A stretch of DNA of 64,000 bases from Ophelia neglecta (taxonomy: Eukaryota): NCBI GenBank assembly GCA_965285935.1, contig OZ260665.1, positions 84,010,001 to 84,074,000 of the forward strand, given 5' to 3'. A program made the position numbers and the translations under genes. The notes under the pieces were generated by a model. The model did no database searches and had not been told where the DNA came from. It worked only from the letters and a program-made list of their open reading frames with translations. Positions 1,846 to 63,600 of the stretch are shown here, in pieces. Within the stretch, counting starts at the first letter, position 1; the number at the start of each line of letters is the position of its first letter.

Positions 1846-1907
1846 TAACAATATCACTGTATATAATTGAACAGTAACCCTAATAAGTTGTGTTGATCTT
1901 ATTACAG

Positions 1908-2667
1908 ATATGGCATTCAGCGACATTTCCAGAGCAAGAGGGGCATTGACATCATTAAAGATGCAGGCTTCCAGTCCTCAAACGATATGTACCTCACAAT
2001 GAAATTAAAAGTAAAACGTGAAGGCAAATGGGAGGCTAAACGCAAGGTGCCAGTAACTGTAGAAGATTGGAAGAAACTTCACGACAGTGGGCTACTAGAC
2101 ACGGACAAACCGGAAACGCTGCAAAACAAGGTGTTCTTGGATGTCATGCTCTTTATCAGAAACCATGGTCGTAGTAGAGGAACCCTCAGATGTCTGAAGA
2201 AATGTGACTTTAAAATATCTCTAGATTCAAAAGGACGACGGCTTGTACATTTTGCGTATGACAATGTGGATGAGAAACCTAAGATAGCTATGTATGCAGA
2301 TGGTACTAGCATGTGTCCAGTGGCTAGCTTTGAGAAATATCTCTGCAAACTGAACCCTAAATGTGAAGCTTTGTTCCAGAAACCAATTCCAATACCAAAA
2401 CTTCTTATGGCAAAAAATGGTAGCTTGGAGGTGGAACCGGTGTGGTATGAGGCTACCGCCATCGGAAAGAACACACTGGGTACTAAGATGAAGGAGCTAT
2501 CTACCGCTGCTAACCTCGACAATGTGTATACCAACATGAGTCTGAAGCTCAACCCTGGCTCACGCAATTGGTCAGACATCTTCAAGGGACAGATGAATAA
2601 GCCCCAGCCTCACCCTCAGCCTCAATTCTCCTACCAGTTTGTGCTGATCCCTCAGAAACCCAGTTAA
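1908..2667 (+). CDS. Terminal coding exon of a Crypton-derived tyrosine-recombinase-fold protein (DUF3504-like; KCTD1-long/ZMYM/QRICH1 type); upstream exons lie outside the window or were not identified
   Basis: Acceptor ttattacAG ends at 1907. The open frame reads YGIQRHFQSKRGIDIIKDAGFQSSND-MYL... Crypton motifs include KPETLQNKVFLDVM, CPVASFEKYLCKLNP..ALFQKP, WY...IGKNTLGTKMKELS.AA.L...YTNMSLK. Stop TAA at 2665-2667. Confidence 0.85.
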
Positions 2668-5449: not shown

Positions 5450-5666
5450 CACCACCAAAGTGTGGCCGAGTGGTTAGGGTGTCCGCCTCACAAGTGGTAG
5501 ATCGGGGTTCGAATCCGGATCGCGTCAAACCCAAGACGTAAAAATAGGTACTGATAGCTCCCCTGCCAGACGCCAGGTATTTTAAAGAGGGCATTGAGCC
5601 CACTGTCACAAGCGATATGACCATATAAGTCACGTAAAGCCACGTAAAAAAACCCAACAACCAACC
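5450..5666 (+). mobile_element. tRNA-derived SINE, internally deleted copy
   Basis: A box TGGCCGAGTGG at 5463-5473 and B box GGTTCGAATCC at 5506-5516. Core caaacccaagacgtaaaaataggtactgatagctcccctgcc resembles Meta/MESC-type cores from memory. AAC/AACC tail. About 110 bp is missing relative to the 13583-13911 copy. Confidence 0.9.
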
Positions 5667-6318
5667 TGGAGTCACACCAGAACACTCGACTAATCTCTGG
5701 ACATGCCTGAGCCCTACTTGGGCCGAGGGGTATTACCTTAGCTTCTACAGTCATTTCATTTATTATCTTTTAATTTTCAGACTACATAAAGACCAGTTTT
5801 GGTAAATACTTTTCCATTTTCCATTCATTTTAGGTAACTATTATTATTCTATTATGCAAAAATTAATTCCCATAATATATGAAAAAGTTGCCTTTTAGTA
5901 CTTGTTGAAAGCCACGTAAAACCCCAAACAACCAACCAACCAACTCAATTTAAGTCTGAGTATAGACTTACACTTGGGCTTTACTCAATACTGTAAATAG
6001 ATGTCTTAGACTGGTGGCTTTGTCATCAATAATCTTTATCAACCGGCTCCAGTTAGTTTTTATACAATAACAACAGTAAAATCCACACATTCTAATATTT
6101 AGTACATAGTGTAATGGTAAATGTTAGCTTGAGATTAAAATCTCAAATTTTGCAAACATTTGATTGGCTCTGAAATTAAAACTCGTGACAATTGTATTTG
6201 CATGTATATCTCTAGCCAAAAAAAATTCAGAGTGTTATTTCCTGCAAAATAATGAACCTAAACCTGAGCAAACATTTTGTTATAGTTATCACAATTACTT
6301 TGATGGATCAACCAACCT

Positions 6319-6520
6319 GAGATGTTTCTTCATTGGAGGGTTAGGGTGGGCTGTGGTGGGGTGGGGATGGGCGGAGTTTACAACAGATAACCATGTGGGT
6401 CATTTAATAGGTATATTTCCCCGAGATGTTTCTTCATTGGAGGGTTAGGGTGGGCTGTGGTGGGGTGGGGATGGGTGGAGTTTACAACAGATAACCATGT
6501 GGGTCATTTAACAGGTATAT
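6319..6520 (+). repeat. Near-perfect 104-bp tandem duplication with G-runs
   Basis: gagatgtttcttcattggagggttagggtgggctgtggtggggtggggatggg... starts at both 6319 and 6423. Confidence 0.95.
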
Positions 6521-7610
6521 AGTAATAGTAAAACATAAAAATGTCCCAACTTGGGGAGGAGGGAAATCAACATAAGTGATTAAATATAAGCCACTTTTTT
6601 TATTACTGTTATTTAACCAAGAACTATTTAACCAAGATTTTTCAAGCATGTAAAGGCTCCTGAATGATCAGCAGTGTAGAATGATAGATAACAAAAAACA
6701 CAGGCTTTAGGACTTGCATAGATGTTCATTTTGCAACAGTTTATTTACATAAATCATACCATAGTAGTTGCTGTATTTGAAATAACATTCAACCTCCTAT
6801 CTAGACCAATTTGGAGTTAAAAATTAAAACCAAACTGTAAACCAGGATAATAATTTTTCTCTGCATGAACATTTGGGTTTACGGTCACATGATATCGTAA
6901 TCTCCTTGTGAATATTTTTCATTTTATATCCTGTATATACCAATACCTGAAAGTGGTTCATATACATTGTAATTCACAGGACAACTTCAGGACAAATCAT
7001 CATTCAATTTATTTCAATGTGCACACATCACATAAGGAACACCACCACCAAGTGCATAAGGTATAGTAACCATAGGTACTGTTTAGTCAGAAATGTTCAT
7101 GGATTACGTGAATTGAAAACAATGTGTTTTAGTGGGAATTTAATTCTGCACAATTGCTACTACCACCATCTAGAGTGCTCTTTATATATTTTGTGGGCAT
7201 AGACTTCTAACTTCCTAGCAAACATTTCTGGTATTCTGGTACCACATCCTGTGCCTTTGGGATTGTTTGATGGACAATCTTCATCAATTGTATAGACTTT
7301 GATATAAAAAGAAATGGGAAGGTGGTATAAAGGTCATCCTATCAATTATAGAGAATAAAAGTCATACTCTTTCAACTTTGCCAACAAACATGTCTGAAGT
7401 AGTATCACCAGTAATAATGTTATTTTGTTGCACCATTTTATTCTTGGAATGTCATAAAATTTGTTTGTAAATTTTTTGTAAATAATTCTACATTTTTCTA
7501 TATTAGAATATAGAAACTCAGACAAATTTTTGTCATCTTTCAACAATCAAAATCATTAAAACAAATTTATTATTTCCCCAATAGGTTGTCAGAATCACAA
7601 TTTTTATATA

Positions 7611-7787
7611 CAGTGAAACCTGTGAAATGAGACCACCCAAGGGACTTGAAAATACTGGTCAAATTATGGAGGTGGTCTGTTTAAACTGGTTACTTCACAC
7701 AGAAAGCATATATTACGATCTCATATTAGTGGTCTGAATTAACAGGTGGCTTTAAGACAAAGCTGGTATTTAAGGCAGGTTTCACTG
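7611..7787 (-). mobile_element. TA-flanked CAGTG MITE, full copy
   Basis: ta|cagtgaaacctg ... caggtttcactg|ta. Confidence 0.9.
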
Positions 7788-7917
7788 TATCTATTAAACA
7801 TCCACACAAAATTATTTAAACTATCATCAGTTTTGTAACAAGACTAATTGTGTATGTTTTTGATACCTAACCCGGTGGCTAGCACAACCAAATTTTGAGC
7901 TACAATTTTTTTTACAC

Positions 7918-9266
7918 CTAAAGGGCTTGCTGTCTAGTGTGTGTGGCCAGATGCCGAGTCAGCTTACCTTTCTGACCGAACCCCTTGCCACATTTTTCAC
8001 ACTTGAATGGTCTCGCCTTAAAGTGTGTGCGTTTGTGTTGTGCAAGGCAGCTTGTGTTGTTATAGCGTTTCCCACATATAAAACACTTGTAGGGCTTTTC
8101 CCCTGTGTGAATACGAAGGTGTTGTGTGAGATGACTGGATACAACACACTTATACCCACATATGTTGCACTCATATGGTTTTTCACCTGTATGTTTGAAC
8201 TCATGGTATCTTAGACCACCTTTTGTGCAGAAACCTTTACCACACACCATACATTTGTGTGGTCTTTCCCCACTGTGCACACGCTGGTGAGTGTTAAAGC
8301 TGCTCTCGGTAATGAATCCCTTTTGGCATATAGTACACGTGTAAAACTTCTCCCCTGTATGCATGAGCTTGTGATTGTTCCAACCTTTTTCTGAACAAAA
8401 TGTTCTAGGGCAAAATGTGCATTTGTATGGTTGAACACCTTCATGTCTGCGCAGATGGGTGGCAAACCTGCTTTTTTCTTCATACCCTTTTCCACACAGA
8501 TTACAGTGAAAGCGTTTTTGATCCTGATGAGTTCTTTTGTGTGTTGACAAGGCCCCACTTACAGCGAATGTCTTACCACATACATCACATTTGAATGGCC
8601 GTTCACCAGTGTGGGATCGATGGTGTTCTTTCAATCGACCTGGCAGAAGAAACCTCTTACTACACACAGAACACTTGTAAGGTTTCTCTCCTGTATGTAG
8701 TTTCATATGGCTGGTGAGACTTTCTTTGCAAGTAAACCACTTTTCACAGATATCACATTTGTATGGTCTCTCTCCTGTGTGAATCTGAGCATGCCTCTTC
8801 ATGTGTGTTGAGTGTGAAAAAGCCTTGTTACAGACAGCACAAAGATAAGGCTTCTCTCCAGTGTGACGGCGCCTGTGGACTATTAAATTAGCATTGCAGG
8901 CAAACCCCTTACCACACTCGGGACATGAGAATGGTTTCTCCCCTGTATGTGTGTTCTCATGGTCTAACAAGGCTCCAGGAGCCTTGAAGGTTTTAGAACA
9001 TACTTTACACTTGTAGTTCTTCTCTCTCTTGTGTGTTAGTTTGTGCTCTTTGAGCTCCTCGGGGCTATCGAATTCTGCACTGCAGGTATGTGAGAGGCAC
9101 CGAAAAGGCCCTTGGTGGACTTTCATATGCCTCTGAATAGTGCCTTTAAAAACAACTCTATTACATATATGACACTTATCCCCGTCAATATGCATGTTTT
9201 TCTCAGGCCTAGCATCTTTTATAGGAGAATCCCTGGCATCCTTCTTTTTGGGAGGGGGCTTGTTTC
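7918..9266 (-). CDS. C2H2 zinc-finger gene A, last exon (15 tandem fingers)
   Basis: 15 C-x2/4-C...H-x3-H fingers with TGEKPY-type linkers. Acceptor ttttttAG at 9268-9267. The phase-1 junction matches the upstream exon. Confidence 0.95.
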
Positions 9267-9912
9267 CTAAAAAATTAATGAAATATTTAAATATCTATAT
9301 ATATTGTAACTGATTAAATGCTCACACTGGTTTAAATTCCTGTTCTTACACAAAATGGTACTTTGCATGTTTTTCCCTTGACCCCAAGTGGTCAAGGGAA
9401 ATCACTGAATTTACCAGGCAGATAATTAACTTGTTTATGCAATTAATACAATAATTCATCCTGTCATGCCTATTGTCAATTTAAGAAGGAAAAATTACTG
9501 CTTTTTTCTTGTAGCCCCCAATGAGAAGGGAGAAATGTATTGGAGTCTATCTGTTGCCACCACTGGAATTTGTTATCAATTATTGTTTTAGCCGAGTTAT
9601 TTTACATGCTAGCCAAGCTGAAGGCAATAGGATTATGAATAATTTTCTCTCCAATTTTTGGGCAACTAAACTTTGATCTGAGCACATAAAATATCACACT
9701 TACTGGCCTGGGAGTGGTGTAAGATTTCAAACATATTTTCAGCACTGCAAATAGCCATGTTGCAGTGACTTAAACCATTAGTGAAGGGAAAAAAATACAA
9801 TGAGTTGAACCTCCAAATTTCAACTTTCTTGTCTGGCTAAAAGTTTAGTCATGTAGTAAAAAAGTGCCTTTTTAAATATTCTATTTATGATAGTGTATGT
9901 AAGATTGAATAC

Positions 9913-11095
9913 CTTCATGTGTTGTTGGTGAGACTTGAGTGCCAACCAATTTAAAGACTCCTTTGCTCTTAGAGGTTTCACCTGTATCCTCTTGATAATT
10001 AGGTAATGGACCTTTCTTCTTTCGTCCCGATCGTCTAGGCCACATAAATTCTTCCAACACAGCCTCAGTTTCACCCAAGCTGTTTGACTCATTATCAGCC
10101 ATACAGGTATTGGAAAAAACTGGAGGATCAGCCGTACTATGACTGGACAAAACCTCGTTATCAACAATACAGTGATTGGAAACTATCTCATTATCAGTCA
10201 TACTGTGATTGGGCACAGTCTCTGTGTGAGCCGATTTGGTTTTATACTGTCTGGCAGGTTTCTCTTTCTCGGAGGATATTTTGCGAGATTCTGGACTGTT
10301 CTTGTTTTCTTCAGATCCACTGTTTGTCTTTGGGTTGTACAAGACATCTTCTTGATAATTTTGCCATTTTCTCTTCCTTTGTGACCTTCGCACCCACATT
10401 TTGTCTGACTTGATATCAGTATCACATGTAACATCAATAGGATCCATTTCATCTGTAATGTCAATGGATTGGTTACTCTGATTCAAAGTGTCAACAGATT
10501 GGTCATTATAGCCCATATTGTCTATGGAATGCATTTCACCTGTGATGTCAATGGACTGGTTACTCTCATTCGTGATGTCAGTGGACTGGTTACACTCCTT
10601 CATAACATCAATGGGCTGGTTAGTCTCCCCCATAATGTCAATTGGGCCTATATCACCTATGATGTCAATAGAATCTGCATCACTCAACGATATATCGCCA
10701 GGCGAACTGGCCACTACAATTCTTTCTTTCTCCACATTTTTAATAGAATCGAAGTTCGTTTTTTCAGTCTGATCAGTGCTTACTAGTATAGGAGATGTAT
10801 CTGGCACATTCTCAATGAATATTGTGAATTCTTCCTCTTCCATTTCTTCCTGAATTTCCTCATCAAGGTTAACACTATGCTGCCCAGCATTGGTGGTAAC
10901 CTCATTGATTGATTTCTGCTCTTTATTCTGGACATTACCACACATTTCAATACAGTATCTGGCATCATTTGGGGGCAATTTTCTCTCACTGTTTACAGTT
11001 TTCATGTTTGTCTTCAAGTCACTGATTTTGAATAATTTTAATTCCTTATTATCAATGTCCATCCTTTTTAAACTATTGATTTCAGATTCAAACAT
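9913..11095 (-). CDS. C2H2 zinc-finger gene A, acidic low-complexity N-terminal exon (spliced protein ~843 aa)
   Basis: 405-codon ORF. Acceptor cttttcttacAG at 11244-11243. Donor GAA G|GTATTC at 9913 is phase 1 and gives GGA with the next exon. Confidence 0.8.
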
Positions 11096-15599: not shown

Positions 15600-17348
15600 T
15601 TAATCCTTCTGCGCCTGTTCTTCACTATTTAAATCCTTCTGTGTCTGCTCTTCACAACGTGAGTGCACATGTTTAACCACTTTAGGCCTTTTTTTAACTT
15701 TCTGTGGTTGCACTCCAGTGTCTGTATGCACATGTTTGGTAACCCTACATTTTCCAGTAATTCCCTTGCCCCACGATGAACACTTGTTTGGTTTGGTGTG
15801 GTCGAGGGGGTGATCTTTAAGATTATATTCCAGTTTAGGAAATGTTGTAGCTACTGGGTCAACACTTTGGTCCACAATGGGTACTGCTCCATTTTTGAAT
15901 GCTTTATTACACATTTTATTAAGATTCAATATCTCTTTCCGGTGTTGGCGTTGGTGTAAGACTAGGGAACTTGAATGCATAAAATCCCTGTTACACACTG
16001 GGCATGAATATAAATATTGACCTGTGTGTATCCCGGGTAAACGCATGTGCTGCTTGACATGACTGATAGTAGTAAATCTTTTGCCACACACTTCACATTC
16101 ATGTGGTTTTTCACCTGTGTGAGTAAACTTATGGTATTTAAGGCCTTTAGTTGTGCGAAACCTTTTTTCACAAACTTTACATTGGTAAGGCTTATCTTTA
16201 TTTGCCACACAAACACATTGGTGGGCTAAAACTTTCTTTTCACTGATAAATCCTTTGCCACAAACTGAGCAGTTAAATGGCTTTTCTGCATGTGTGAGAC
16301 GGTGGTGATGCTTTAACTTAGGTTCTGAACTGAAGTGTCCGGGGCAGAGTGTGCACTTGAACAGCTTTTCACTCAAATGTGTATTCTTGTGTTGAGTGAA
16401 CCTGATTTTATTGACATATCTTTTTCCACAGACAGAACAAGACAACATGTTTTGTTCATCATGTAACTTTCTGTGCTGTGTGCAGGAGGATGAAGAAGAA
16501 AGCAACAGACCACACACATCACACATATACTGCTTTTTGCTGTTGTGTAAGCGCTGATGTTCTGTCAGCAATCTTGAATATATGAACCTCTTACCACAAA
16601 GACCGCAAATGTGTGGCCTCTCTCCCGCATGAACTTTGTGGTGGTACTGCAAACTTTCCTTTGTGGCTAATCTTTTCCCACAAATTGTACATGGAAATTG
16701 TTTCTCCTCTGCATGAGTTTGCATGTGTCTTTTTTGGTGACTAGACTCTGAGAACCCCTTGCCACACACCATGCACTTGTATGGCTTCTCTCCTGTGTGT
16801 TTTCGCTGATGAATGCCTAAACCTGAACTGGAAACAAAGCCTTTACCACACTCCATACACATGTACGGTTTCTCCTCTTTGTGTGTATTTGTGTGTCTTT
16901 TTAGGTGGCTAGAATTAGCAAACCCTTTGCCGCAGATGGCACATTTGTGAGGTTTGTCCCCTGTATGTATGCGCTGGTGTACTGTTAAATTTGTATTATT
17001 AGCAAACCCCTTACCACAGTATGCACACGAGAATGGTTTCTTCCCTGTGTGAATGTTCATATGAGAATCTAGACTGTTTGTAGAGGAGAATGCCTTATCA
17101 CACATAGTGCACTGGTATCGGGTTGCACCACTGTGCTTTACTCTGTGTTCATTGAAATCCTGCTCTGTGGTAAACTTTTGGCCGCATCCTCGTACTTTGC
17201 ACTTTATAGGACTAGTGTGGACTTTCAGGTGTCTCTGAAGGCTTCTGTTATTATACAACACCTTGCCACAAGTTGGACAAGTATGCTTGTGCTCTGCTTG
17301 TGTCTTAGTCCTAGCAGGTTGAATGGACATTGCTCCAGATATGTTCAT
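15600..17348 (-). CDS. C2H2 zinc-finger gene B (~16 fingers plus degenerate C-terminal fingers), paralog of gene A
   Basis: 582 codons from ATG 17348. Acceptor tattttcAG at 17372-17371, followed by an in-frame TAA before the ATG. Fingers are collinear with gene A. Confidence 0.92.
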   Translation of the reverse strand: MNISGAMSIQPARTKTQAEHKHTCPTCGKVLYNNRSLQRHLKVHTSPIKCKVRGCGQKFTTEQDFNEHRVKHSGATRYQCTMCDKAFSSTNSLDSHMNIHTGKKPFSCAYCGKGFANNTNLTVHQRIHTGDKPHKCAICGKGFANSSHLKRHTNTHKEEKPYMCMECGKGFVSSSGLGIHQRKHTGEKPYKCMVCGKGFSESSHQKRHMQTHAEEKQFPCTICGKRLATKESLQYHHKVHAGERPHICGLCGKRFIYSRLLTEHQRLHNSKKQYMCDVCGLLLSSSSSCTQHRKLHDEQNMLSCSVCGKRYVNKIRFTQHKNTHLSEKLFKCTLCPGHFSSEPKLKHHHRLTHAEKPFNCSVCGKGFISEKKVLAHQCVCVANKDKPYQCKVCEKRFRTTKGLKYHKFTHTGEKPHECEVCGKRFTTISHVKQHMRLPGIHTGQYLYSCPVCNRDFMHSSSLVLHQRQHRKEILNLNKMCNKAFKNGAVPIVDQSVDPVATTFPKLEYNLKDHPLDHTKPNKCSSWGKGITGKCRVTKHVHTDTGVQPQKVKKRPKVVKHVHSRCEEQTQKDLNSEEQAQKD

Positions 17349-18779
17349 TTTTTCCAAGGTTCCTTCTTATCTGAAAATATACATGTTTATTAGTCAGAAT
17401 TAAGAAAGTGTTCAATATGTGTTCAAATACACTGTATACCATCTACTCATTGCGAAAAATGTTAGCTTAACAATGTAATTCTTGAATAATGCAAATAAAA
17501 ATAAGTACACATTGTTGACAAATATATCTGAAGGTGCTTTGTGTGACAACTTTCAATCTGGTCATGTTGGCTATGGAGCTTTCTATTTGACTTACCGGTA
17601 TATGGGGTTGGGAATAAATTAACAAAATGGGGCATTCTATAATACTGTCAGGGGTTAAGGTTAAATTCACAAAATATTGCAGCAGCAGCATAAGTGGGGC
17701 AGTGCTATATGCACTGTGGCATATGTGCGGCAGTGGCATATGTGGGTTGGCGGCCACCTTGGGAAAGAGATTAGACTGTCAGCAAGAGCACAAAATGCAC
17801 ATTGCCGATACATATCAAGATATCCCAGAGCATAATCATATTGTCAGCACAAACAGTGCACTATATTGATGTATCGATGAATGTTTACACCCCTAGGAAC
17901 CATTATGTCTGGGGCAATTTAGTTTGGGACGAGACTAGAAGCTTTCAAGTCAAGTTGTATCTTATACCAACAGGTACCTATCTGCTGACTTTTTCCAAGG
18001 TACTTCGAGTCGGAGTATAAGTGGGACTCGCCTTTTTTGGCTGGGAATAAGTTCCCAGGGGGGGGGGGGGGGGCCTCATAGCTATGAGACATATATAATT
18101 TTAGGTGGTAGTAGGAATGTGGTAGTAGTATTTTCCTTCTTTGTAACTGGTCGTAATTTTCAAGAATGTGCCTTATTTTAGTGAAATGCCTCCCATAGAA
18201 CCGTAGCAAGAAAATCATCTAGCATCACCCTCAAATGATAAATGCACATTAGCCTAATGTCAACATTGATTCCCAGGCACTATCACTTGATTTCAGATGT
18301 ACCATATATTGGCCGAAACAGTTTTCATTGGCTATGTTTGTAAATCAGTTAAGAATGAGTAGCCCCCCCCCCCCCACCCGGGCATTTAGGGACTTCCCCA
18401 CCCCTTTGGAATCCTTCTAGAAACAAAATCCACATTAAAGGATGGCATATAAAGCTGTCTTAAAATTTCACATCATGCAGCACATGCAGCCTGGTTTGGG
18501 CACTGGAAACTGAGAGGGTAAACAATTCTTCCAAACTTTTGATAGCATATCATGAGTATTCCCTGTCATTATATCCAAGCCCCTGAAAGCAGTAGTAAAT
18601 GGGGCACATTTTATCTTTAACGTAGATGTAAATATTCTGTACAGTCTCATATATATCCACATACAGTCCAAGAGGGGAGGCAAAAAATGACAACAAATGA
18701 CAAGTATTTTTACCATATCCAAAAAGTGGCACTGGCTAAGTATGTGATGACCTTTTAAACGCTCTGAAGTGGTAGGAGG

Positions 18780-25181: not shown

Positions 25182-26105
25182 GTGTGTCTTTATTATTGTC
25201 CTTTTTTTGGTAAAAAGAGAGAACAGGAAAATTGCTAATGTCACTGGGACTGAATAGCGGGGTCTCACACTTTGGGTATGTTATCAATATTGAAGTATGG
25301 GTTTCAGTTTGAAGCGAATTTTTTTGGTACTTTGATATGACACTTTCTTTAATGCAAAGGTGCTGAATGTTAGAACCTAGGGCATAAAATGTGTTGTGCA
25401 TATTTACAAAATTTGCCCTTATATTTGTGTACGCTCTTCAGCCAAAAGTTTTATAGGTGCAATAGTGAAATTGAATGGGATTAAACTCTCTTAGATGAAC
25501 ATGCATAGGCTGATTAATTTTTTGGTGAAATCTGGCAGTATTCTGTGGCCATAGCTAATGCTTAACCAAATTTTCCAAGTAAAATTAACCTCTTTATTTG
25601 AACAGGTATTAATGATTCTTATTGGCCTATGCATGAATATACACACACAAAACCTTGAAGAAAAGTACACACTTTGGTCTGGAAACCAACATTCATTTGC
25701 ACTGTTTTGCTGGACGCCTTCATATACACAGAATCAAATAGATAAAGCAAATAATTTAGATTAGTGTCTAAATTAGTGTCCATGATCATTTCAAGTGTGT
25801 TAAACACTAATAGGAAGTCATATATTGAGAATCTTTTGATGGCTTTAAATTTGACCTTGACCTCTTTCTTGGTGCTTTATGATCACCTGTGAAGGGGTGC
25901 CTCCCCCAACACCTGTTAACCTTGACCTACAAGTCCATTTTCCATGCCATGCTGCCCTTTAGGGGAGGACTCCTCATGTTAGGTATTTAATGTTATCATG
26001 AAATGTGCGATAATTTTTTTAAAGATTTTTGATAATAGGGTTCTATACATTTGTATATAAATAAAATGTGAATGAAAATAAACAATACTTGTCTGTTCCT
26101 TACAG

Positions 26106-26310
26106 CCGCAGGACATATTATAGAAAAAGGCTGGCTCAAGGCCTTCCATTGAGAGAAGATCAAAGATTGGAATATGAATTAGGCATACCCATTCAGGAAG
26201 AGACGGAAGCAGCAAAACTCCAAGCACAAGAGGATCTAAGAAAATATAATAGACTTAAGTCGCGAGAATCCAGAAAAAGACGGTCTCAAATTAAAACTGA
26301 ATCAGATTGA
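26106..26310 (+). CDS. Coding exon 3 (terminal) of the same gene, with a basic bZIP-like C-terminus
   Basis: Acceptor ctgttccttacAG ends at 26105, phase 2. Reads RRTYYRKRLAQG...LRKYNRLKSRESRKRRSQIKTESD-stop. Confidence 0.75.
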
Positions 26311-26854
26311 GATCAATTATTAAGAAAAATGTCTGGAAATAAAGATATAGAAGGGAAGGAGGGAGTAGGGCAGTATGTTTTATCTGACCCTTTAGTACTG
26401 TAATGATTTGTCTATCATTTTAAATTCGAAAATTTTGTGAAAATTCACTCTTATCATGCAGTTATAACTCGCAAACATTGTATTCGCATGTATAAATAGG
26501 GTCTCCCTATCTCTTGGCGCGAAATTAAGGTCACAAATTAATACCAGCGCAATCTTTTACTGTTACAGTACAGTACTCTGAACTTGGACTTCACCTGGCT
26601 TATATTATGATTTGCTGTTCCTACTTTTCTAAAAATGTGATGCTGCTTTTAGTTTCTGTAAAATCATGTTTTGGTGGTCCATTCCAAAATTTTTCCCATC
26701 ATTGGTCAAGTAAACTAAAATCTTAAAGTTTTATGCTTCGTATATTTGATGCATTTGTTAAAGGCACGAAACAAGTTGATTTCATGCACTTTGATGCTGA
26801 AAAATGTGAAGTTTAACCAACGTAAAATAAACATTTGGCTAATAATGTGAAGTA

Positions 26855-27164
26855 GAGTGAAACCTGTGAATTAAGACCACCAAAGGGACTGGAAACGGAG
26901 ATGGTAGGTTTAGGCAGGTTATTTAACATCGAAAGCATACATAATGGTCCCCATATAAGTGGTCTGAATTGACAGGTGGTCTGAACAGTGAAACCTGTCG
27001 CAAAGACTACCTCTATTATCAGATCTCCTGTCCTTTCAGACCTCTCATATGGGAACCATGATGTATGCTTTCAATGTTAAATAACCTGCCTAAACAGACC
27101 ACCTCCTAAATCAGACCATCATATTCCAGTCCCTTTGGTAGTCTTAATTCACAGGTTTTTGCTG
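26855..27164. mobile_element. Two adjacent CAGTG MITE copies in opposite orientation
   Basis: Partial copy at 26855-26985 followed by a copy at 26986-27164. Confidence 0.85.
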
Positions 27165-27169
27165 TACAA

Positions 27170-27248
27170 GTCAAAATTACATGTATCATATACAAGGTCA
27201 AATTACATATATCATATACAATATCAAAATTACATGTATCATATACAG
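27170..27248 (+). repeat. Short tandem repeat, ~3 x 26 bp
   Basis: tcaaaattacatgtatcatataca repeated. Confidence 0.85.
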
Positions 27249-27836
27249 CAATTTCTGGACATTTATGCAGCCAAGTCATGGCAAGAATATATTGATTTTA
27301 TAACTAAGCTTTGATTTAACCTCACACTTTGATCTCTTTCCAGTTGCCCCAAGTTTGTGCACAACTCTCCCATTCTGGCAGGACATTTTTCACAGAAGTC
27401 ACTTTAAAAATACAAGGCCATAAAAACTACAAGTCCACTTTAAGTTTACACGTTACAGTTTATTACAATTGTGTGCAGTCTATTTCTAATATTGCTAGTC
27501 CTCATCGATTTAGAGGTGGGGAACCATTTCTTTTTGTAGTGCTCCAGACAAATGGTGGCCCATGCAGCCTTAGTCCCCAGACATCACACTGAAAGGGATA
27601 CTACCATACTTACCCTCCAGTGAAAAGGTTCTCTTTAAAATTTACCATCTCACAGCCAGAAATTCTAGGAATGCATGTTGCTCCATAATTTGTGCAGGAA
27701 AATGTATTGGTGGATATGGAGTAGCAAAATAAAGACCAGATATATTTATAGTTTATATATGTTTAGTCTCGTTTAACCATTGTATTTTCAAATTATAAGA
27801 AACAGAATTAAACTTGCTTTGGCTTTTTATGTCTAA

Positions 27837-30800
27837 TGTATAGCGAGTGCAAGTGAGTGGCCCCGAAGGGCCGCTCGCCTAGGGAGCTCTATAGGTAACG
27901 GGTATGTGTAGTGATAAATCACATCAAACTATAGAGATACAGTTACTCAAACCAACTTGTTTCCTTTGTTATTTTCCGGTATTGTAGTAGCCGCCCATCC
28001 CCGTTTGACTTTTGGCGAGAAATGAAATATCTATCTCGTCTTATCAATTTTGCTTTTCCTCTGGCTTTTCCATGTTCCCCTATGATAATTGATTATGAAT
28101 CCAGAACACTTCTGGTTCTTTTGTGGGTAACACGAGCCCTCGGAATTGGTATTCAAATGGTGTTAGAGATCATGCTTATTCCACCTCCTCAGTATCCGCT
28201 CATACAGAATAAAATGAGTGCATGGTAGAACCTACCATACATTCATGTATAGCAGAACCAAGCAGAAACAACTCTACTCAGCATTCTTACACCAAATGCA
28301 TGGATGTCTCTGGTCCAAACCTGCCTATTGGTATTTTTTGGGGAGATGAGTCAATGAATTTGTATGTCCGTTAATCATCTCAAACATTTTACAATCAAAC
28401 CATTGATGAGTCTGAAAGTCTGAAAAGCCACAATTTCCTTCTGCAAGTGTGGGAAGCCTTTTTTCAATGTCAGATAGATGCTTATTTCATGTGGCATAAT
28501 AAACTGGACAAGTTAAAATTTGCCAGCAGTCAATCATCTGAGGAAGTGACTGAATCTATTTTAAATTGTATCAAATCCCTTAGTGACAAACATCTGTCAC
28601 ATTTGATGATATATCTACAGTCATGAAAAAACAGTCAATCATGTTACAGATCTAAGGCTGGTCTGATTATTCTTATACATTCCGGTCAATAATGTGCCAG
28701 CAAGTCAAATCATTTCTCTTTTGGGACAGGTTTATTCATAGGGACTGTTTAATGTATATTGGCATGAGGATAGCCGTTCAAAGTGGAAATTGGAATTTGA
28801 GGATTAGCTGTCTCAAACAAACGCTACCCCTTTTATGATAGCAGATTGACCAAACTACAGTCGAATCATCCCAAAACATCCAGTAGATACGAGTACATGG
28901 CCCTTGTATATCAAGTCCAATCTTGAACAAAGTGGCTTCTCAGTAAGTCTTCAAGGTACTCCATTTTCATCTTTGGCACTGGATGAGTGTCATAAAAGCA
29001 CCATTAATTTGCAAGTCAAGGCTGCTCTCCCAAAGAAAGATAAATCATAAGTTGCCTCCTTGGTTTTGTCTCTACCTTTTCGTGCCAAAATGATAGACAA
29101 TTTCAAAGTTCATTTGGCTTCTAATCATTAAAGAACAGACATGAGAGATGATAAAGAAAGTGTCATCCGAAAATTTTAAAGGAAATACTGCTTCATATAA
29201 GTTGAAGATTGCATCTTCACAAGTGTTCACCAGCAGTCCTGAAAATAATAGTTTGATGCATATTTTTTTCTGGTAAAGCTGCTAGCTTCTGGTGATCTTT
29301 TGTGTTTTTATGGCAATGGTATTAAAAACTCTGTGAATTTTATCACATCAACTTATCTAAGGCCATCCATTGTAAAACCAAAATGGTCCAGCACAAACTA
29401 AATTGAAAACATTCACACCAGCCAAGGCTGTGACATCTAAGCAAGTTCAGCGTTTGGGCGAATATAATGCTTTGTTGATGACTTGTTTTAAGAATCTTGC
29501 AACTTACTCTCATGCTTCAAAAACTGTGGTAGATCAAGTTGGTCAACTTATTGAGCTGCCTCGAGCTATTGCTCTATCAAATGGATTACCATACAAAGGA
29601 AGCAAAGCATATACCCCAACTTTTATCAAGATAATCTGAGATAGCCCCTTCTCTTTTTTTTTGACTCTCTTAAACCTGACCATGATCTCCAAAGTACTAT
29701 TTTATATGCAATGTTCCTGATACATTCCCCTCCTTTAGGGTCTTTTGTAACACAATTTTTCTTGAGGAGATGGGTTGGTGAATATTTCAAAATGGGTATT
29801 TCTCAAGTGCATGTTTTGTTTTATGATCCCAACCGCATTGGTGTTTCTCCCAAGGACATAGAAAGGCAAAGAAGGACAAATGTTTCTGTAAAAGGGAGTC
29901 CTCACCCATTGTATTCTCAAATATCATCAGAGACAGCTATACCTAAATGTGGTTGGTCCGATTTCCTGGATAACAGTGCCAATAAAAGCACTCTTATGGC
30001 CTACCTTTGCTGTTACATCAATAAGAATATGGCCAAATTTTGTCACGGTGAGCAATGTATTGTCGTGTCTGGTGGATTTCTCCAGGACTTCTGGATAAAG
30101 CGTACATGGTCTCTTTGTCCGGAACAGTTGAAATGGCAACTTTGACTTCAAATCAAGAAGAGACAGATTCTCTGATTTGGATCCATATGAACCTCTGTGG
30201 ATTAAGGAATAGTTAAGTATTCTCACCTGGCACAGATGGGTATCAGATTGGTTCCCCATTAATGAGGTTATTCCCTGAAAAAAGAGGCATTGTTCAGCTG
30301 AGAAAAACATACTTGGACTTGAACATTTTCAATAACTGTTTACAGACTATCTCAGAACTCAGTTGCCTACAGTCTCCCTGCCTTCACTTGCAATATAGTC
30401 AATGGCTTTTTATAGCATCAGGTTGCGATTCCCCTTCTTTTTTTTATTGAGTTGGAAAATCCACATTTATGAATCATGCATTTAAATATGCAGATTTCAT
30501 TTGCAATGGTATATTGGCACACAACTCTGCTTCTCTTTCTTCAAGGGTCTGGTTTCTCGTGTTCTGGCTGTTTGCCCTCTGTGTTCAGATAATTCTCGAA
30601 CATATTTTTGTACAATTTGCAACATTGAATTTGGAATATCACTTCTTTCATTTTACTGATTAATTGGCTGCAAGCATTTTTTCATGTACAAAACTGCCTT
30701 CTCTGAAAATTCCCCAGTAGCCCACTTCACCACATTTGTTCAGCCCTTGCTGCCTAGTTTTTCCTTGTCAGAGGCTCACTCCCAGTGGCTTCAAGAAATA

Positions 30801-30870
30801 AGATTGAATACTTGGCAATGTACTTATGCCCCCTTCGCCGGCCTGAGTTTTTACAACTGCCTCGCTTATA
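27837..30870 (+). mobile_element. Decayed unclassified DNA element encoding a large protein with a C-terminal FEN1/PIN-like 5' nuclease
   Basis: Frameshifted and stop-riddled motifs in collinear order: SHNFLLQVWEAF (~28426), FWDRFIHRDCLMYIG..SGNWNLRISCLK (~28720), GFSVSLQG..SLALDECH (~28934), ELPRAI..GLPYKGSK, AMFLIHSPP, VHVLFYDP, QEETDSLIWIH (~30153), FSPGTDGYQIG (~30220), SGCDSPSFFY*VGK (~30418). GC-rich hairpin at the left end. Confidence 0.7.
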
Positions 30871-30884
30871 GGGCATGCGCTTGA

Positions 30885-30946
30885 ATTCGAATATAAGCGC
30901 ACTCTCGAATATAAGCGCATGCGCCTATATACGCGATAATACGGTA
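30885..30946. mobile_element. End fragment of a (TA)CCGTA-terminus MITE
   Basis: Two copies of cgaatataagcgca followed by tatacgcgataatacggta. Confidence 0.5.
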
Positions 30947-31149
30947 GTAGAATTAGAACATAGTAGTGTTCGTAGTAATACGTTTGCAAAGGAATTTTTC
31001 CAACTTTCAGGTAGTTTCGCAAATAACAATTAAACAACAATGGAAATAGGTCTAAGCGTATACTAAATTTCCCTGTAATAAAAAGTACTTGCATTAATTA
31101 TTTATTCGGGGAAAACACAACGTCTAAGATTGTGAGAGCACTTTATCGA

Positions 31150-31624
31150 ATACGAATTTATATTTTGCAACTCCCGTTGTAGTCTCGTCGGCAATCCCGC
31201 ACATTTGAGGCCAGTTCCGTGAGGATGGGTGCCAATAAAATATATGTCAATAAACAGTAGTTGTTTCGATACCGGTTATCTTGAAATCAGGGGATAGTGG
31301 TGATCTTCAGCAGGTTCAAATGATTGAAAATTGAAAACCTCGTCAGCTGTGAGGGTAAAGCACGTGCAGACCACAACGAGGCTATGATTGGCTGTCGTCT
31401 GCTTTGCTTTCGTCTGTTAGTCACGCGTCAGTGCTCGGCGGACCCCTTGCTGCATGCTGTTGGAACCTGACCTGGGAACTATACTATCATACATAAGGGG
31501 TGATTTTTTCTCTTTCGCTCGCAAACTAGGCATCGCCTATTTATATTAGATCTCTTGTCAAACATTAGTTGCTTTCAAGTGAGACTTCTTTTTGTATTTT
31601 TTTGCAATATACATTCTTGTCGAG
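31150..31624 (+). promoter_or_regulatory. Candidate promoter and non-coding first exon of the LDLa-domain gene
   Basis: CpG-rich, with E-box CACGTG (31361), inverted CCAAT GATTGGCT (~31386) and a CRE-like tcacgcgtca. Donor GAG|GTAAAT at 31624. Confidence 0.5.
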
Positions 31625-32145
31625 GTAAATATGCGGGTTGAGTATAACCATTTATACGATAGCAGTATAGCCAGAGGCGTGATGTTCCGGGACGAGCTTC
31701 ACCGAGACAACATAATTTGTTCGATGAAATACTGCAGAGTTTACTACAACGACTACCTGTCCCATAGTGTCAAACAATCAGTTTATGATTGCAACAACAA
31801 AAGTTAGTTCTAACACTCTTTTCATTGCAATATTTTCTTGACACATAAGATAAATAGAGATAGAATGATTAAAATTGATCATATCATGTCAGCAACTTGA
31901 AACTGTCAAACAACAATATTTTGAATGTATCTTTGTATCTACACAAAACAGCCTGTGGATTCGCTCAGTTTCAACGCTTTCTAGATGTTCCGTCCCCAAA
32001 CCTCAACGGCCCCTAGTCTGGTAGTTACTTGGTTGAATTGCTTATGGACGTGGGTAATATTTGTAGACGAACAATTTCCCATGCGCTTGGCACGCCCGTT
32101 TTTCATTTAAGTATGCCAAAAAACGATGTAATGTGCGGACACCGA

Positions 32146-32457
32146 CAGATCGGTGGCCATGACGCTTCTAGACCCCTGGTGGGGCCATCTGGTGGCGGTG
32201 TCGGTGTCGTGAAAATTGTCGTGGAGTCTCTGGCCAGTAGTGTTCAGCGAGTCCCGCCCTCTGGTGCCCTTTTCACACGTAAGCGGATGTAAACATTGAG
32301 ACATTTTGACAGATATAGTTTGACAGCTCCATGCAAGTGAACTCTGTCTGATTAACCTCCCTAAACACTACTGGCCAGAGACTCCCAAGACAATTTCCAC
32401 GACAGCGCCACCAGAGGGCCCCACCAGGGGGCTACAAGTGTCATGGCCACCGATCAG
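32146..32457. mobile_element. Palindromic MITE with ~95-bp imperfect inverted arms
   Basis: gatcggtggccatgac...gagtctctggccagtagtgtt pairs with aacactactggccagagactc...gtcatggccaccgatc. Confidence 0.85.
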
Positions 32458-32926
32458 CTGGGCCTGTGGTGTTTTCACCGAGGGAATTAGTCACAAATCA
32501 TTGATGGTGACGTAAGCCGGACTTCTGCAACAGAGGGAATATTTAGGCTATTGGATTAGCATAAGTGAGCCTATTTTGGTAGTGGATGCTTTATATGTGG
32601 AATAGTATAGTATAAATTCTCAGACTCCATAAATTGCAGGCTGTGAGACGCCAAGCCTGATTTTTCTAAACAATAACAGATGTGTTGGACCTCATTATTT
32701 TATTAGGATAAATATCATAATTTATACAGGTGGGGGGTGGGGGGGGGAGGCCTAATTACAAATTGTTGTATACTCCCAACTGCTTTCTCCCTCAACTGCC
32801 CAATCCCTCCCTTTTCCCCATCAAGATGACAGATGATTTTATTTTTGATATGTTTTTTTATGATATTTCAGTTGTGATGTGATCAGGTAGTGAAGGCTGG
32901 ACGGCAGAAGTCCAGTGGTTTACAGA

Positions 32927-32936
32927 ATGCAGGATA
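32927..32936 (+). CDS. Start-codon exon segment (M-Q-D) of the LDLa/TM/PPxY gene; exon 32872-32936
   Basis: Acceptor atatttcAG ends at 32871. ATG CAG GAT A|GTGAGT is phase 1 and matches the LDLa exon. Confidence 0.6.
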
Positions 32937-34137
32937 GTGAGTATTGAATACTGTAAAATGACAAACATTTGCTGGGATTTGGCATATTTCCGGGCTAAAA
33001 AGACACTGATATTGATATTGGACAATATTTGTCATTTTACAGTATAGGCCTGCACGCATTAACAAGTGCTGGTTCCTTGATTAACCGGATACCCATTATT
33101 AGTGAATGGCCCGGCCATAAGTAGTAATAAAACTCTACTATAAAGTTCCATATTTTCTCTCACACATTTGTTTTCTGGCCGGCAACACGGTCATTTGTCA
33201 GGCAGTTTTACCATATTAGTGTGTGTATATTTCTGTTTTCAATACGAAAGCCTTGGTTTTCTTTTTAATCAGTAATTTGCCCCAGTTCACTAGTCCCAAA
33301 TGCTATTTTACTCAATCGAGTTATTAGGATGTATTGATTTTAATGTTTTATTTTTTTCAGATGAAACTGACCAGTAATTTGGCCCAAATCACATGTCTTA
33401 TTGTGATATCACTGGGCAAACCTCTGTTGTAGGAGACTTTCAAATCATTGATTTACCACATGCCAATATTTGCCTGTATCATGAATACAACTGTCACATC
33501 ATCCTTTATGATTGTCAAAGCAGTTTAGAGCTATACAAATTGCTATGTAGCAGAAAAACAGGGCCCAGCCTCAAAATTGGCTTCAAAGTGCAAAAAATAA
33601 TTACAATTTTGCAGTTAAGCCGTCCTATTAGTATGATAAGGAGGTCTGGTGTAATTTATTGAATTTTCTTCTACTATTCTCTGTGATTGCCAGACTTAGT
33701 TTTCGCTTAGCATACTCAAAACATTTGGGAGTCAATCTCACAACCTATTTTATGACTTGTCTATTGCACATGTTTATAAAAACTTTGACTTTCATACTGG
33801 GTTTGCCTTGTATATATTGTTGTGATTGTATATTATCTTAACATGTGCATTGTTCTTTATTTATTGGATATATCTTATTACTGTGGACTGCTATATAAAT
33901 GCCTTGTTTTCCTCCATTTTCTCCACACATCCATATTTAGTTAGTTCATCCTGAACAATTAATAAATTTTGTGTATTTTTCCTCTCCATTTATTTATACT
34001 GTTTTATGCATATGATGTTAAATCACTTTTGGGATAAAATTTATTGTACTGAAAACATACAATAAAACTATGAATGGACAATTTAATAAAGTTATGATAA
34101 ACTGTAATCTTATTGTTTAAATTCTTGCTAACTTCAG

Positions 34138-35299: not shown

Positions 35300-38064
35300 C
35301 ATAACGTCACCACAGTTCATAGGCATGATATTTTTGTGAATGTTTTTCCTTTACTTATTAAAAGAGCATTCAAATAGAACTTGGGAATATCAAGTACACC
35401 ACCTCTGTCCTTCTCACATTGAAAGTTTGTTTTCATTTTCAAAAATTTTACCCACCCATGAACCATTCATTGCAGATAATTTGCTAATCAAATCAACCAT
35501 CTGAAGGCTTCTGTTTTTTGTATTCACCAATAAGGGTATCACGTTTAATCCTATCTTTTTTACTCCAAACAAAATTATAAATAAGTCTCTGCGCTTGTTT
35601 TATAACACACTCTGGTATAGATATAATACTACAATTATACACAATCTGTGATATACCAAACACTTTTACTATACATATCTTCCCTTTTAGAGAGAGTTCT
35701 TGACTTCCAGACATTTAAAGACATTTCTAATCTCTTTACTTTATCCAATTCTTTTCATTGCATTCTTCCTTTTTGTGTCCTATATATATTCCAGGACATT
35801 TCACACCTTTGTTAGTAAATTGTATTCCATTGAAATATTCTGGAAATCCTTTATAAGACCCCAACCAAATACCTTCACTTTTAGACAAGTTGAGTTTAAG
35901 ACCAGATACCTGACAAAACTTTTCTAATTCTTGACAGGCGTTAACTATTGAATTCAAATCTGAGAGCAGGAGAGTGGAGTCATCTGCATATAAAGATAGT
36001 TTAATCTCTTCACCATCAAAAAGGAAACCTTTTATATCAACCCTTTGTCGTATTTTGGTGGCTAATAGTTCCAACGATAGAATAAACAGCAGTGCAGAAA
36101 TAGGGCATCTTTGTCGGATTACCTTTCTCATCTTGAAGTTTTGTGACAACCAACCATTATAATTAACAATTACCTGAGGTTCATTATACAAGATTTTAAT
36201 CCATTTGACAAAATTGTTGCTGAGGTTAAATCTTCTCAAGGTTTCAAACATGAAGTTCCATTCCAGGCTATCGAATGCTTTTTGAAAGTAAAGGCAAATT
36301 AAGGAGCCAAACTCATTATACCTTTCACAGTACACGTATTCAAAAACATAATGAATTATACATGCATTTACTCCTATAAAACATCCTTTTATGAAGGCAC
36401 TTTGGTCATCGTTAATAAGCCTGTTAATTACTTTTTTAAGTCATTGAGAAAGAGCAAATGCGATTAATTTATAGTTATAATTGCTCAGACTAATGGGTCT
36501 ATAATTTTCTACGTCCACCATCGGTCCTTTCTTATAAATCAGTGCCAAAACTGACTTTCTCATGGATGAGGTGAGCAGTCCAGTTTTAAATGTTTCATTT
36601 AACATGTTCATATAAAACTCTTTCAAGATGCTCCAGAATTTTTTATAAAACTCTGGTATAATACTTTCAGATTCTTACTGGATGTTTCGAGTTCAGTTTC
36701 AAAATGGGTTGACTTAAAATTTTATTTTTAGAGTCAGTTACTGTGGGACATTCTATGACTTCAATGTTTTCCCTTATAGTGTCAGAATTAATATTATTCG
36801 AATTATGTAAATTTTCATAAAATTTGGCACATGTTTGTAAAATTAGGTTATTATCTTCAGTCACATTCTCAGAAACCAGTCTCCCAATGACATTGCCTGC
36901 CTGTCTAGGCTTTTCTAAATTACAAAAGTACTTGGTTGACCTTTCACCTTGCTCGTAACATAAAACTATAGATCTAACAATTGCCCCTTTAGTGATCTCA
37001 TCATACATATCAGAAATTTGGTTCTCCAGAACCTGCCTTCTTCCTTCCAGAAGCTCATTATTAGGGTTTTCTTCAAGTTTGAATGTAATGTCATCAAGTT
37101 CACTTTGCACTTGACACCTTACTTTTTTCTTATTTTTAGCCCTATAGATGGAGTAATTAATAAAATACTCTTTAATGTTTATCTTGAGTATCTCACATAG
37201 CTGTCTACAAATTGTTTGCCCTTTATATTTTTCAGCTGTGTTAATGACCAATTTTTCGACCATTTGACAAGAGTCACTTTCTGATAGTAGCTTTGCATTT
37301 AGTTTCAAATAGCCAGGTCCTCGAGTGAGGGAGGTAAAAGAAAATTTACCAGTTAAGACTTTATGGTCTGGTAGTATAGTACAATCGACTAGGGATAATT
37401 TTTCGAGATTATAGGTAAATGTTGAGCTACACAAGATATAATCAAGTCTGCTTTTGGTTCCATGTTTTTTATCAACATATGTAAAGCATGGTCTATCTCC
37501 ATTTACTTGTTGCCAAGAATCAGATAGGTTGAGATGACGTATCATTTTACTGAAGTGATTTGTGCTTGTATCTCGAGTGTGAGTTCTAGGAATTTAATCG
37601 CATTCATTGGGACAGCAGTTAAGATCCCCACATACAATTAAGTTATTGTGATTCTTTGCCTTACAGGAGATCCATGACATAGATTTTTTATAAGAAATCA
37701 CACCTTGTTTTTTCTGAATTAGCTGCATTCAAGCACACAAGAGATAAAATATTTGTTTCATGTTTTGCATTATTAAGCAATCGCCTTCCATCAGAAGTTT
37801 TATGACAATCGATAATATTGTATTTGAAATTGACACCTAATAAAATTGCAACTCCCCTACTATGGTTTGAATCAGAAGTACCATGAAATATTTGGCCCTT
37901 CCATGTGGCATTGAAATAGGGCAGAAATTTTTCAGTGCAGAATTTTCTTGCAAGAAAGGGATTTGAATGTTCTGATCACAAAGCCACTGAAATACCTTTT
38001 TGCGTTTTACAGTATCATTAAAACCTCTGACATTCAGTGTAGACTAAGTTAAAAATTCAGCCAT
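35300..38064 (-). mobile_element. Decayed L1/Tx1-clade LINE ORF2 (APE endonuclease + RT), antisense in an intron
   Basis: Motifs TLNVRGFND..KRKKVFQWL, SRLDYIL..PDHK, RGPGYLKLN, EQGERSTKYF, NYRPISLSN, QKAFDSLEW, RQRCPISALLF and LYADD, with multiple frameshifts and stops. Confidence 0.92.
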
Positions 38065-63000: not shown

Positions 63001-63600
63001 AGAAAACCTTTTTGCTGTTTTGCTTAAACATGATCTGTGTGCAAAAAAGTTATCATAGCCTGGAAGTTCCAAATTCTGAATATCATTAGACCACGTCTCT
63101 GTCAGAAGGATTATATCACATTGGTTAAATATATCGAGAACGTCAGGATCTTGCAGTTTCGAATAATTTTTGAATACGAGACCTCTAATGTTCAACACTA
63201 GTAAAGTCAGTTTCTTACATGCGTCTGCGGCGTTCTCCTATACATGTCTGTCTGGCTTTTGTTGTTGTTCAGTCGGCTGGCCTGGTGTCCCGGCTGGTTG
63301 CTGTGCTTCTTGATGTTGTCCTGGTATTCTGGCTGGTTGCTGAGCTGTTTGATAGGGAGAAGCGGCGATCGGCTGTTGTCCACCTGCAGCCGTTGGTTGT
63401 TGGTTGACCCCGGGAGGTTCCTGAGTCTGTTGCAGAGTAGGGTTTGGCAGAGGACCAGGCGCCCTGGTCATATCATCCGCCCTGCCCTGCTCGTCTCCCA
63501 TCTGAACTTAATGTCAGATCAATCACGTTGTCGGCAGAACTGGGGACGCTGGCGGGTGCAGGGTTCAATCGAGGTTGTGATATTTAAAACGATCTTCGCA
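60090..63600 (-). mobile_element. RTEX-like LINE: ORF1 remnant, endonuclease (63198-62353), RT with C-terminal CCHC (62387-60285), and 3' UTR
   Basis: EN motifs LNIRGL, LTETW, GDFNARTG, VVDY and SDHCPI. RT motifs NYRGITLLS, FIDFRKAFD, GVRQGECISPFLF and YADD. C-terminal HRLNVEVG..RLCTQC..EDEYHIIFEC. 3' UTR hairpin tcctgat..atcagga and AATAAA at ~60104. Confidence 0.92.

Follow-up and report, generated by a model that had tools for sequence, protein, structure and literature searches.

The window analyzed here, 64,000 nucleotides of Ophelia neglecta DNA (assembly GCA_965285935.1, contig OZ260665.1, positions 84,010,001 to 84,074,000), carries between positions 27,837 and 30,870 a series of decayed coding remnants, which are very probably a dead internal fragment of an AcademX-type DNA transposon. 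A preliminary description of this interval had seen a decayed mobile element with a FEN1/PIN-like nuclease and no recognizable DDE domain, could not place it in a named superfamily, and suggested that it moves by an unusual nuclease-based mechanism. Intact copies elsewhere in the genome encode an Academ-type DDE transposase and are bounded by terminal inverted repeats (TIRs) and target site duplications (TSDs) of 3-4 bp; they thus provide the match to a known superfamily transposase that the preliminary description had named as grounds for refuting its reading. The family therefore very probably belongs to a known superfamily, of which its ubiquitin-like (UBL) leader ending in Gly-Gly (GG) and its nested OTU domain probably make it a variant, as judged with the main Academ paper and Repbase outside the comparison.

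When the 762-Mb genome was searched with DNA from window positions 27780-30930, at least 55 matches were obtained with 40 of 263 candidates scored. Four of them reached 90% identity across 28422-30825 and many lay at 67-82%; the edges proposed in the preliminary description stayed uncovered. The window locus is therefore a repeat. As that description had proposed, it is a pseudogenized transposon copy, collinear with an intact open reading frame (ORF) of 2273 amino acids (aa) elsewhere in the genome, and six-frame translation recovered every peptide quoted there in plus-strand frames of 28422-30825, with stops and frame changes between them (YAMFLI at 29705, VLFYDP, QEETD at 30154-30168, SPGTDG at 30223-30240 and GCD at 30421). 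The features of the locus are listed in the table below. By tblastn, the first Academ fragment corresponds to approximately aa 1100-1252 of the intact protein P0002, a stretch that takes in the last part of the OTU insert and the linker preceding the second catalytic aspartate (D2). The second fragment comprises the DExHE motif and the XPG/FEN1-fold nuclease together with the helical portion of the DDE domain, and is 90.0% identical to four family-A copies and 68-73% identical to families B-E.

Table. Features of the Academ-derived locus and its flanks (window coordinates).
Feature	Position	Strand	Description
Academ fragment 1	27994..28415	+	element nt 4776-5228 (family A, 12,556 bp); identity 83.7%
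Deletion junction	28416..28421	+	480 bp gone (element nt 5229-5708), and with them D2 (AGD) and GDFH
Academ fragment 2	28422..30825	+	element nt 5709-8140, about aa 1412-2221; decayed
DECHK, the family's DExHE motif	28982..28996	+	predicted catalytic Glu replaced by Lys in the window copy
FEN1/EXO1/XPG-fold 5'-nuclease remnant	29690..30470	+	three conserved acidic residues altered
Repeat X, 5' part	27839..27994	+	non-coding, full length about 760 bp; begins with TATAGCGAG and has a GC hairpin; outside the transposon
Repeat X, 3' part	30943..31546	+	separated from the 5' part by a 2.95-kb insert
MITE Y, right end	30826..30946	+	non-coding, TACCGTA...TACGGTA; about 540-670 bp when whole; outside the transposon

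The joint of the deletion between the two fragments carries a short AGTCTGAA duplication. The window copy has accumulated 16 frame-shifting indels, 13 of them within fragment 2, and its substitutions fall evenly on the three codon positions (long block 66/59/74, short block 15/12/16), the pattern of neutral decay. Of the Academ catalytic motifs it retains only the E motif, reading K. The first catalytic aspartate (D1), which sits upstream of the 5' break, was lost by truncation. Because D1 is truncated, D2 falls within the deletion and E is replaced by K, the DDE domain was invisible in the letters of the window; it is encoded by the intact family copies. The acidic changes in the nuclease are DAMF to YAMF, FDDP to FYDP and SPDTD to SPGTD. 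The family's true terminal motif occurs nowhere in the window, and the copy is without a TSD because both element ends are gone. A search of Rfam with window positions 26000-33000 returned no match at E <= 0.1.

To define the intact parent element, 10-kb stretches around the copies and their neighbours were fetched, and the element bounds were taken from an all-against-all comparison. Stop-free frames of 2273 (P0002, family A), 2326, 2427 (P0001, family B) and 2427 codons were found, in elements of about 12.3-12.6 kb in family A and 13.6 kb in family B. Elements of both families start with CACTGACCCGG and finish with CCGGGTCAGTG, forming TIRs of 11-15 bp. The genome contains 127 occurrences of the terminal motif, a 14-mer degenerate at two places, compared with 7 of a reversed control. 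Among 17 two-ended insertions, the TSD was 4 bp in 12 and 3 bp in three, and two had none; L087 and L088 were taken as one because their flanks are identical, one of the 12 4-bp duplications (C_C7) was read from a relaxed motif, and the count leaves out three cross-pairings of nested ends, a tandem on contig C142 and three one-ended copies. Six elements of 3-7.4 kb (L085-L090) share the family ends and have no tblastn match to the ORF, and are thus non-autonomous derivatives. Downstream of the transposase, a second ORF (ORF2) encodes a GDSL/SGNH-like hydrolase domain (Pfam E 1e-9 in family A), which is 64% identical in family E; in families B and C, ORF2 is a different protein with similar motifs.

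Pfam analysis of P0001 and P0002 placed DUF6589, a domain for which the preliminary description had suggested looking, above the cut-off in both proteins; no other family exceeded it, and Transposase_21/23/24 gave no match. At E <= 0.001, relatives were found in 4166 cluster representatives, and 30 near-length relatives, including Branchiostoma, Strongylocentrotus, Mytilus, Antedon and Holothuria records, were 22-42% identical. Among alignment rows with a residue at the position in question, the predicted catalytic D855 of P0001 is conserved in 58 of 60, D1371 in 91 of 91 and E1634 in 84 of 86. We compared these motifs with the RNase_H_Academ profile in the supplement of PMC5751038, which has 465 positions and the conserved letters D3-N4-x-D6, H22, Q30, G190-D191, GxxH223, G240-l-e-e-l-a, D450-xxx-E454 and K462. 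Counterparts assigned by eye in the intact copies are DN[IL]D, HGT..Q, [AV]GD, GD[FW]H, AGLEDIA and DE[AC]HE..K, respectively. The spacing between D2 and E is 263 in the profile, in P0001 and in P0002, and 245-269 in all but one of 31 proteins, and that between D1 and D2 is 188 in the profile, approximately 190-230 in insert-free relatives and about 515 aa when the OTU insert is present.

An AlphaFold model of aa 830-1780 (m2b03; mean predicted local distance difference test score, pLDDT, 83; 98 alignment rows) was used in a VIA search. It matched P-element transposase (Z 10.3, root-mean-square deviation (rmsd) 5.9, 291 aligned), integrase (Z 8.8, rmsd 4.0, 134) and Tn5 (Z 8.7, rmsd 4.2, 172), with integrases (Z 8-8.8), Tn5, Hermes and Transib all within Z 7-8.8. 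Foldseek gave no match for this DDE-half model at E <= 0.001, and the rows that it listed were all OTU. The intact copies are predicted to encode an RNase H/DDE fold. In a comparison of families A and B, in which the synonymous rate (dS) is near saturation, the ratio of nonsynonymous to synonymous rates (dN/dS) of the DDE core was approximately 0.08, the strongest constraint among the regions with a finite estimate. Academ is counted among the DDE superfamilies in PMC9587614.

The C-terminal half of the same ORF is predicted to form a FEN1/EXO1/XRN fold. In a VIA search, an AlphaFold model of aa 1780-2380 (m7245; pLDDT 91; 77 of the first alignment's 110 rows) matched Exo1 (Z 14.6, rmsd 4.0, 269 aligned), FEN1 (Z 13.1, rmsd 3.6, 231), XPG (Z 12.2, rmsd 3.7, 230) and GEN1 (Z 12.1), with 8-14% identity in these structural alignments; Foldseek matched it to XRN1/2 (E 2e-6 to XRN1) and Exo1 (E 2e-4). 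The FEN1/XPG-type reading of the preliminary description is therefore confirmed by the fold of an intact relative. Seven acidic positions of the nuclease are conserved, in 83/86 (D or E), 94/95, 104/106, 104/106, 103/107, 105/107 and 100/102 rows. By sequence, the nuclease half found no PDB match at E <= 10 and no Pfam family, and fold comparison alone matched it. Beyond the part preserved in the window, the ORF ends in a conserved cysteine cluster (GCxC..C..C.C..CG..C.C..C), and a Tesmin/TCR Pfam match at the cut-off was obtained in the relative P0012.

The two edges proposed in the preliminary description turned out to lie in separate repeats. Its left terminus is the start of repeat X, of about 760 bp, in which the hairpin that had been noted is real (27854-27877), and its right terminus lies inside the end of a miniature inverted-repeat transposable element (MITE) of about 660 bp, MITE Y. 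The weak inverted match claimed between these edges (left 54 nt against right 55 nt) has an alignment score of 14, which is at chance level: among 5000 dinucleotide shuffles 1782 reached it, as did 186 of the 2314 tiles of the window. All 40 scored genome candidates for the 5' part of X matched (75 candidates in all), and 11 of 14 fetched X loci continue into sequence matching window positions ~30941-31546; the 2.95-kb insert therefore splits one copy of X. The right end of Y likewise matched in 40 of 40 scored candidates, at 85-97% identity (93 candidates in all). Academ coding sequence was present in none of the 28 fetched X and Y loci. Repeat X is abundant; its junctions are AT-rich, and the GC hairpin lies close to one end. 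It resembles Helentron/DINE elements but is left unclassified; a Helentron-type non-autonomous element was considered and rejected, since X has the hairpin but its ends share no convincing inverted repeat of 12-16 nt.

In the simplest history, Y would have inserted into X at a TA and Academ into Y, after which deletions would have removed both Academ ends and the left part of Y. This order is one of two histories that fit the locus, and to that extent counts against our reading of it. In the other, the insert would be filler DNA copied from an Academ copy during break repair at the X/Y junction, a possibility that we regard as real but somewhat short of even. A single repair event with a template jump would account for both junctions, the 480-bp gap and the short duplication at its joint, in keeping with the missing TSD and the loss of both Academ ends. 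The same picture, however, arises from nested insertion followed by deletions, and further truncated copies are known in the O. neglecta genome.

With regard to the superfamily, several points weigh against a plain assignment to Academ. The motif match is by eye and unscored, with profile positions 41-168, 195-219 and 246-449 outside the comparison. The context of D2 is DQP in the profile and DAKT/DGKT in the family, and the E motif is DealE in the profile and DExHE in the family. The TIRs are short (11-15 bp) and start with CACTG, like CACTA/Chapaev ends. Many Academ families, by contrast, have TAG ends and long TIRs, and the end signature of the superfamily is YR..YR. DUF6589 is better known from fungal helicase-type elements. 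No Repbase or Dfam reference entered the comparison, and the 50-row tree contains no named reference. The differences at D2 and E and the short CACTG ends indicate that the family is a divergent branch.

They would also suit a separate Academ-like lineage, standing beside AcademX and AcademH and defined by a DUF6589-type transposase, CACTG ends, the nuclease and the UBL leader. We consider this unlikely. DUF6589 scores above the cut-off, the motifs differ from the published profile as described, and UBL leaders appear on three or more of the deep branches in the tree of 50 rows; but the fusion of the nuclease and the TSDs of 3-4 bp are exactly the traits given for AcademX in PMC10045372, and Repbase probably already holds members, because relatives occur in the well-studied genomes of Branchiostoma, Strongylocentrotus and Mytilus. 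PMC10045372 assigns TSDs of 3-4 bp to AcademX and of 9-10 bp to AcademH, and ties them to the nuclease and the helicase, respectively. The Ophelia families share with AcademX the Academ-type DDE motifs and their spacing, the XPG/FEN1-fold nuclease in the same ORF, the TSD length and the presence of TIRs. They differ from it in their short CACTG TIRs, GDAKT and DExHE motifs, hydrophobic and UBL-GG leader, OTU nested in the DDE domain and SGNH/GDSL-like ORF2, and, at 12.3-13.6 kb, from bivalve Academ elements, which average 5.6 kb (PMC10294476). With AcademH they have in common the transposase superfamily (the DUF6589-like region), but no helicase ORF was found in family A or B (whole-element ORF lists, and Pfam analysis of long ORFs and of family-A ORF2), and a 9-10-bp TSD was seen in none of the 17 insertions, the TSDs being of 3-4 bp.

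The CMC (CACTA/EnSpm, Chapaev) and Transib superfamilies have CAC(TG) termini and short TSDs, in which the Ophelia families resemble them, but these families have other motifs, a fused 5'-nuclease and no Pfam match to Transposase_21/23/24, which are CMC domains according to a table in PMC5751038. Passages of PMC10799480, PMC9143410, PMC12166591, bioRxiv 2021.09.26.461848 and PMC9783078 contained nothing decisive for the Academ comparison, and among the papers listed by our literature search none linked Academ with XPG/Rad2.

As for the nuclease of AcademX itself, Kojima 2020 and Kapitonov & Jurka 2010 are said to describe it as XPG-type and fused, followed by a Cys8 finger; the C-terminal cysteine cluster of the Ophelia proteins is a further likeness. 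The mechanism proposed in the preliminary description, movement of an unclassified element by its FEN1/PIN-like nuclease without a DDE enzyme, is very improbable. In its favour, more than 100 relatives conserve the acidic residues and the fold of the nuclease, no Pfam transposase family was matched, and Foldseek found no DDE match at E <= 0.001. The same ORF, however, combines an RNase H-type fold with a conserved D-D-E triad, its DDE core is under the strong constraint reported above, and the elements have TIRs and 3-4-bp TSDs, so that mobilization purely by the nuclease is not needed. There is practically no chance that the locus is a pseudogene of host FEN1, EXO1, GEN1 or XPG, with which it has the fold in common: structural identity is 8-14%, no PDB sequence matched at E <= 10, no Pfam family matched, and the nuclease is fused to a transposase within multi-copy repeats bounded by TIRs and TSDs. 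The intact copies already refute a pseudogene, and neither sequence orthology to these host genes nor a single non-mobile locus was found.

For the intact copies, DDE cut-and-paste is the likely mode of movement. The DDE domain would nick the 3' ends and join them to target strands staggered by 3-4 bp. By analogy, the nuclease would, somewhat more probably than otherwise, remove 5' flaps or cut the non-transferred strands. Comparable roles on the 5' strand are those of TnsA in Tn7 and of host FEN1 after retroviral integration.

The intact ORF starts with two hydrophobic segments, followed by a ubiquitin-like domain that ends in Gly-Gly just ahead of the transposase. This end reads P-G-[LP]-G-G-M-K-R in all five families examined, and the same GG end is present in 7 database proteins; all 12 aligned rows, which were picked for showing the domain, have this GG without variation. 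A profile of the leader alignment matches ubiquitin through its C-terminus (E 2e-6 for single-domain chains), and Atlas returned ubiquitin clusters at 0.86-0.90 for the leader. The domain was found in 9 of the 10 tree proteins with at least 700 residues annotated before D1, the other 40 starting too late to judge. In a rough comparison of families A and B, the UBL gave a dN/dS of 0.10, the hydrophobic part one of 0.26 and the OTU one of 0.22. No shorter protein matching the leader region (P0001 aa 60-460) turned up among 4710 candidates.

The second domain, a predicted OTU fold, is nested between D1 and D2 of the intact copies. In the VIA search, model m2b03 matched OTUD3 with Z 11.1 (rmsd 3.1, 133 aligned). 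The OTU Cys and His are invariant in 10 of 10 rows and the Asp after the His nearly so, and the C/H/D residues are intact in the own-genome protein. Pfam OTU is above the cut-off in the relatives P0005 and P0069, and a local OTU profile matched 16 of 179 stored proteins, 5 of which had, together with three own-genome stretches, been used to build it. A PDB sequence search with the OTU insert gave 2 matches only, both spurious. On the 50-row tree, which has a midpoint root only, the UBL and OTU labels require at least 2-3 changes.

The sequence of the leader suggests a candidate cleavable ubiquitin-like fusion, with proteolytic release of the transposase. The primary product would then be a membrane-tethered ubiquitin-like fusion that a deubiquitinase (DUB) cuts after GG, for which we see an even chance. 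A host enzyme would be likelier to cleave the leader than the element's own OTU alone, and strict self-processing is doubtful, since an OTU is missing from 5 of the 9 UBL-bearing proteins. These proteins also speak against the wider interpretation, as do several other observations. The Pfam ubiquitin score of the own-genome protein is under the cut-off (E 0.025), and so is its Pfam OTU score. The hydrophobic N-terminal segments are absent in 3 of 8 UBL proteins checked, 6 OTU-bearing proteins have no UBL, with N-termini too short to judge, and dS is near saturation in the comparison of families A and B from which the ratios come. Family A, moreover, reads PGPGG, with a proline near the cut site. 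A proline near the cleavage site may hinder DUBs. We put forward only tentatively that, in a widespread marine-invertebrate branch of Academ, the transposase would be a membrane-tethered, UBL-fused zymogen, from which cleavage at GG by host DUBs or the nested OTU would free the DDE and FEN1-fold enzyme.

Ubiquitin-ribosomal protein fusions (eS31, eL40) likewise have a ubiquitin fold ending in GG with an in-frame passenger; in the Ophelia proteins, unlike these, the UBL is highly divergent, hydrophobic segments lie ahead of it and the passenger is a transposase. A ubiquitin-pathway protease (OTU, Ulp1 or VTD) is also found in transposon proteins of Ginger1 (PMC2836005) and Helitron/Helentron (PMC11417382, PMC9741609). 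The protease is C-terminal in Ginger1 and upstream of RepHel in Helitron/Helentron, whereas the Ophelia OTU lies inside the catalytic domain, and the Ophelia polypeptide also carries the candidate substrate, UBL-GG. Our literature search, with Repbase Reports and subscription journals outside its scope, found no report of a UBL-di-Gly transposase fusion.

The window copy itself is ordinary junk; the intact relatives, near-identical copies with open ORFs in a little-studied superfamily, are more useful. They make two questions testable. The first is the role of the fused FEN1-fold nuclease in transposition, whose link to TSD length is merely suggested in PMC10045372. The second is why transposons carry ubiquitin-pathway proteases, the OTU domains of transposons being untested according to PMC9741609. 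Since a candidate substrate, a UBL ending in GG, is present in the same polypeptide as the OTU, a concrete function is offered, the regulated release of transposase, which, if true, would amount to a proteolytic on-switch for a cut-and-paste transposon.

Several observations concern individual copies of the family. At G000:C142:11030/11031 (L083:1512/1513), two family-B copies stand head to tail; their ends abut exactly, with no TSD in between, and the assembly has no other joint of this kind. One contig (X3) crosses it, with 30 letters on the short side, below the 31-letter rule; the three runs used, none of them listed as RNA, came from one sample of one study, possibly the assembly's own sample. 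Either an excised circle that recombined into a copy or an assembly artefact would account for the joint. At G000:C2:84183715-84208841 (L098-L100), an element sits within a second one, 28 bp in from its left end, and both have a 4-bp TSD of their own. Two family-B copies (L022 and L023) have an internal duplication of ~690 bp spanning the OTU insert, and the frame of L022 remains open. Among the short elements L085-L090, of 3.1-7.4 kb, the interior of a 5.7-6.1-kb non-autonomous group is filled with tandem repeats. ORF2 was located at L013:154-861 (minus strand) and at nt 10186-10950 of the family-B element.

Elsewhere in the window, a palindromic MITE-like repeat occupies positions 26850-27160 and at least 10 other places, and one copy of it lies within family-B elements at nt ~1610-1800. 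A long GC-rich inverted repeat with 56-nt arms at 91% and nested arms (32148-32455) is probably another MITE. Remnants of long interspersed nuclear element (LINE) retrotransposons lie on the minus strand at 60285-63237 and 35736-37593, with reverse transcriptase in both and endonuclease in the first (Pfam). An ORF at 1897-2667 (plus strand) has a weak DUF3504 match (E 0.005, under the cut-off) and resembles a Crypton-derived tyrosine-recombinase-like exon. Two long exons with C2H2 zinc-finger arrays (7918-9294 and 15600-17366, both minus strand) probably belong to host genes.

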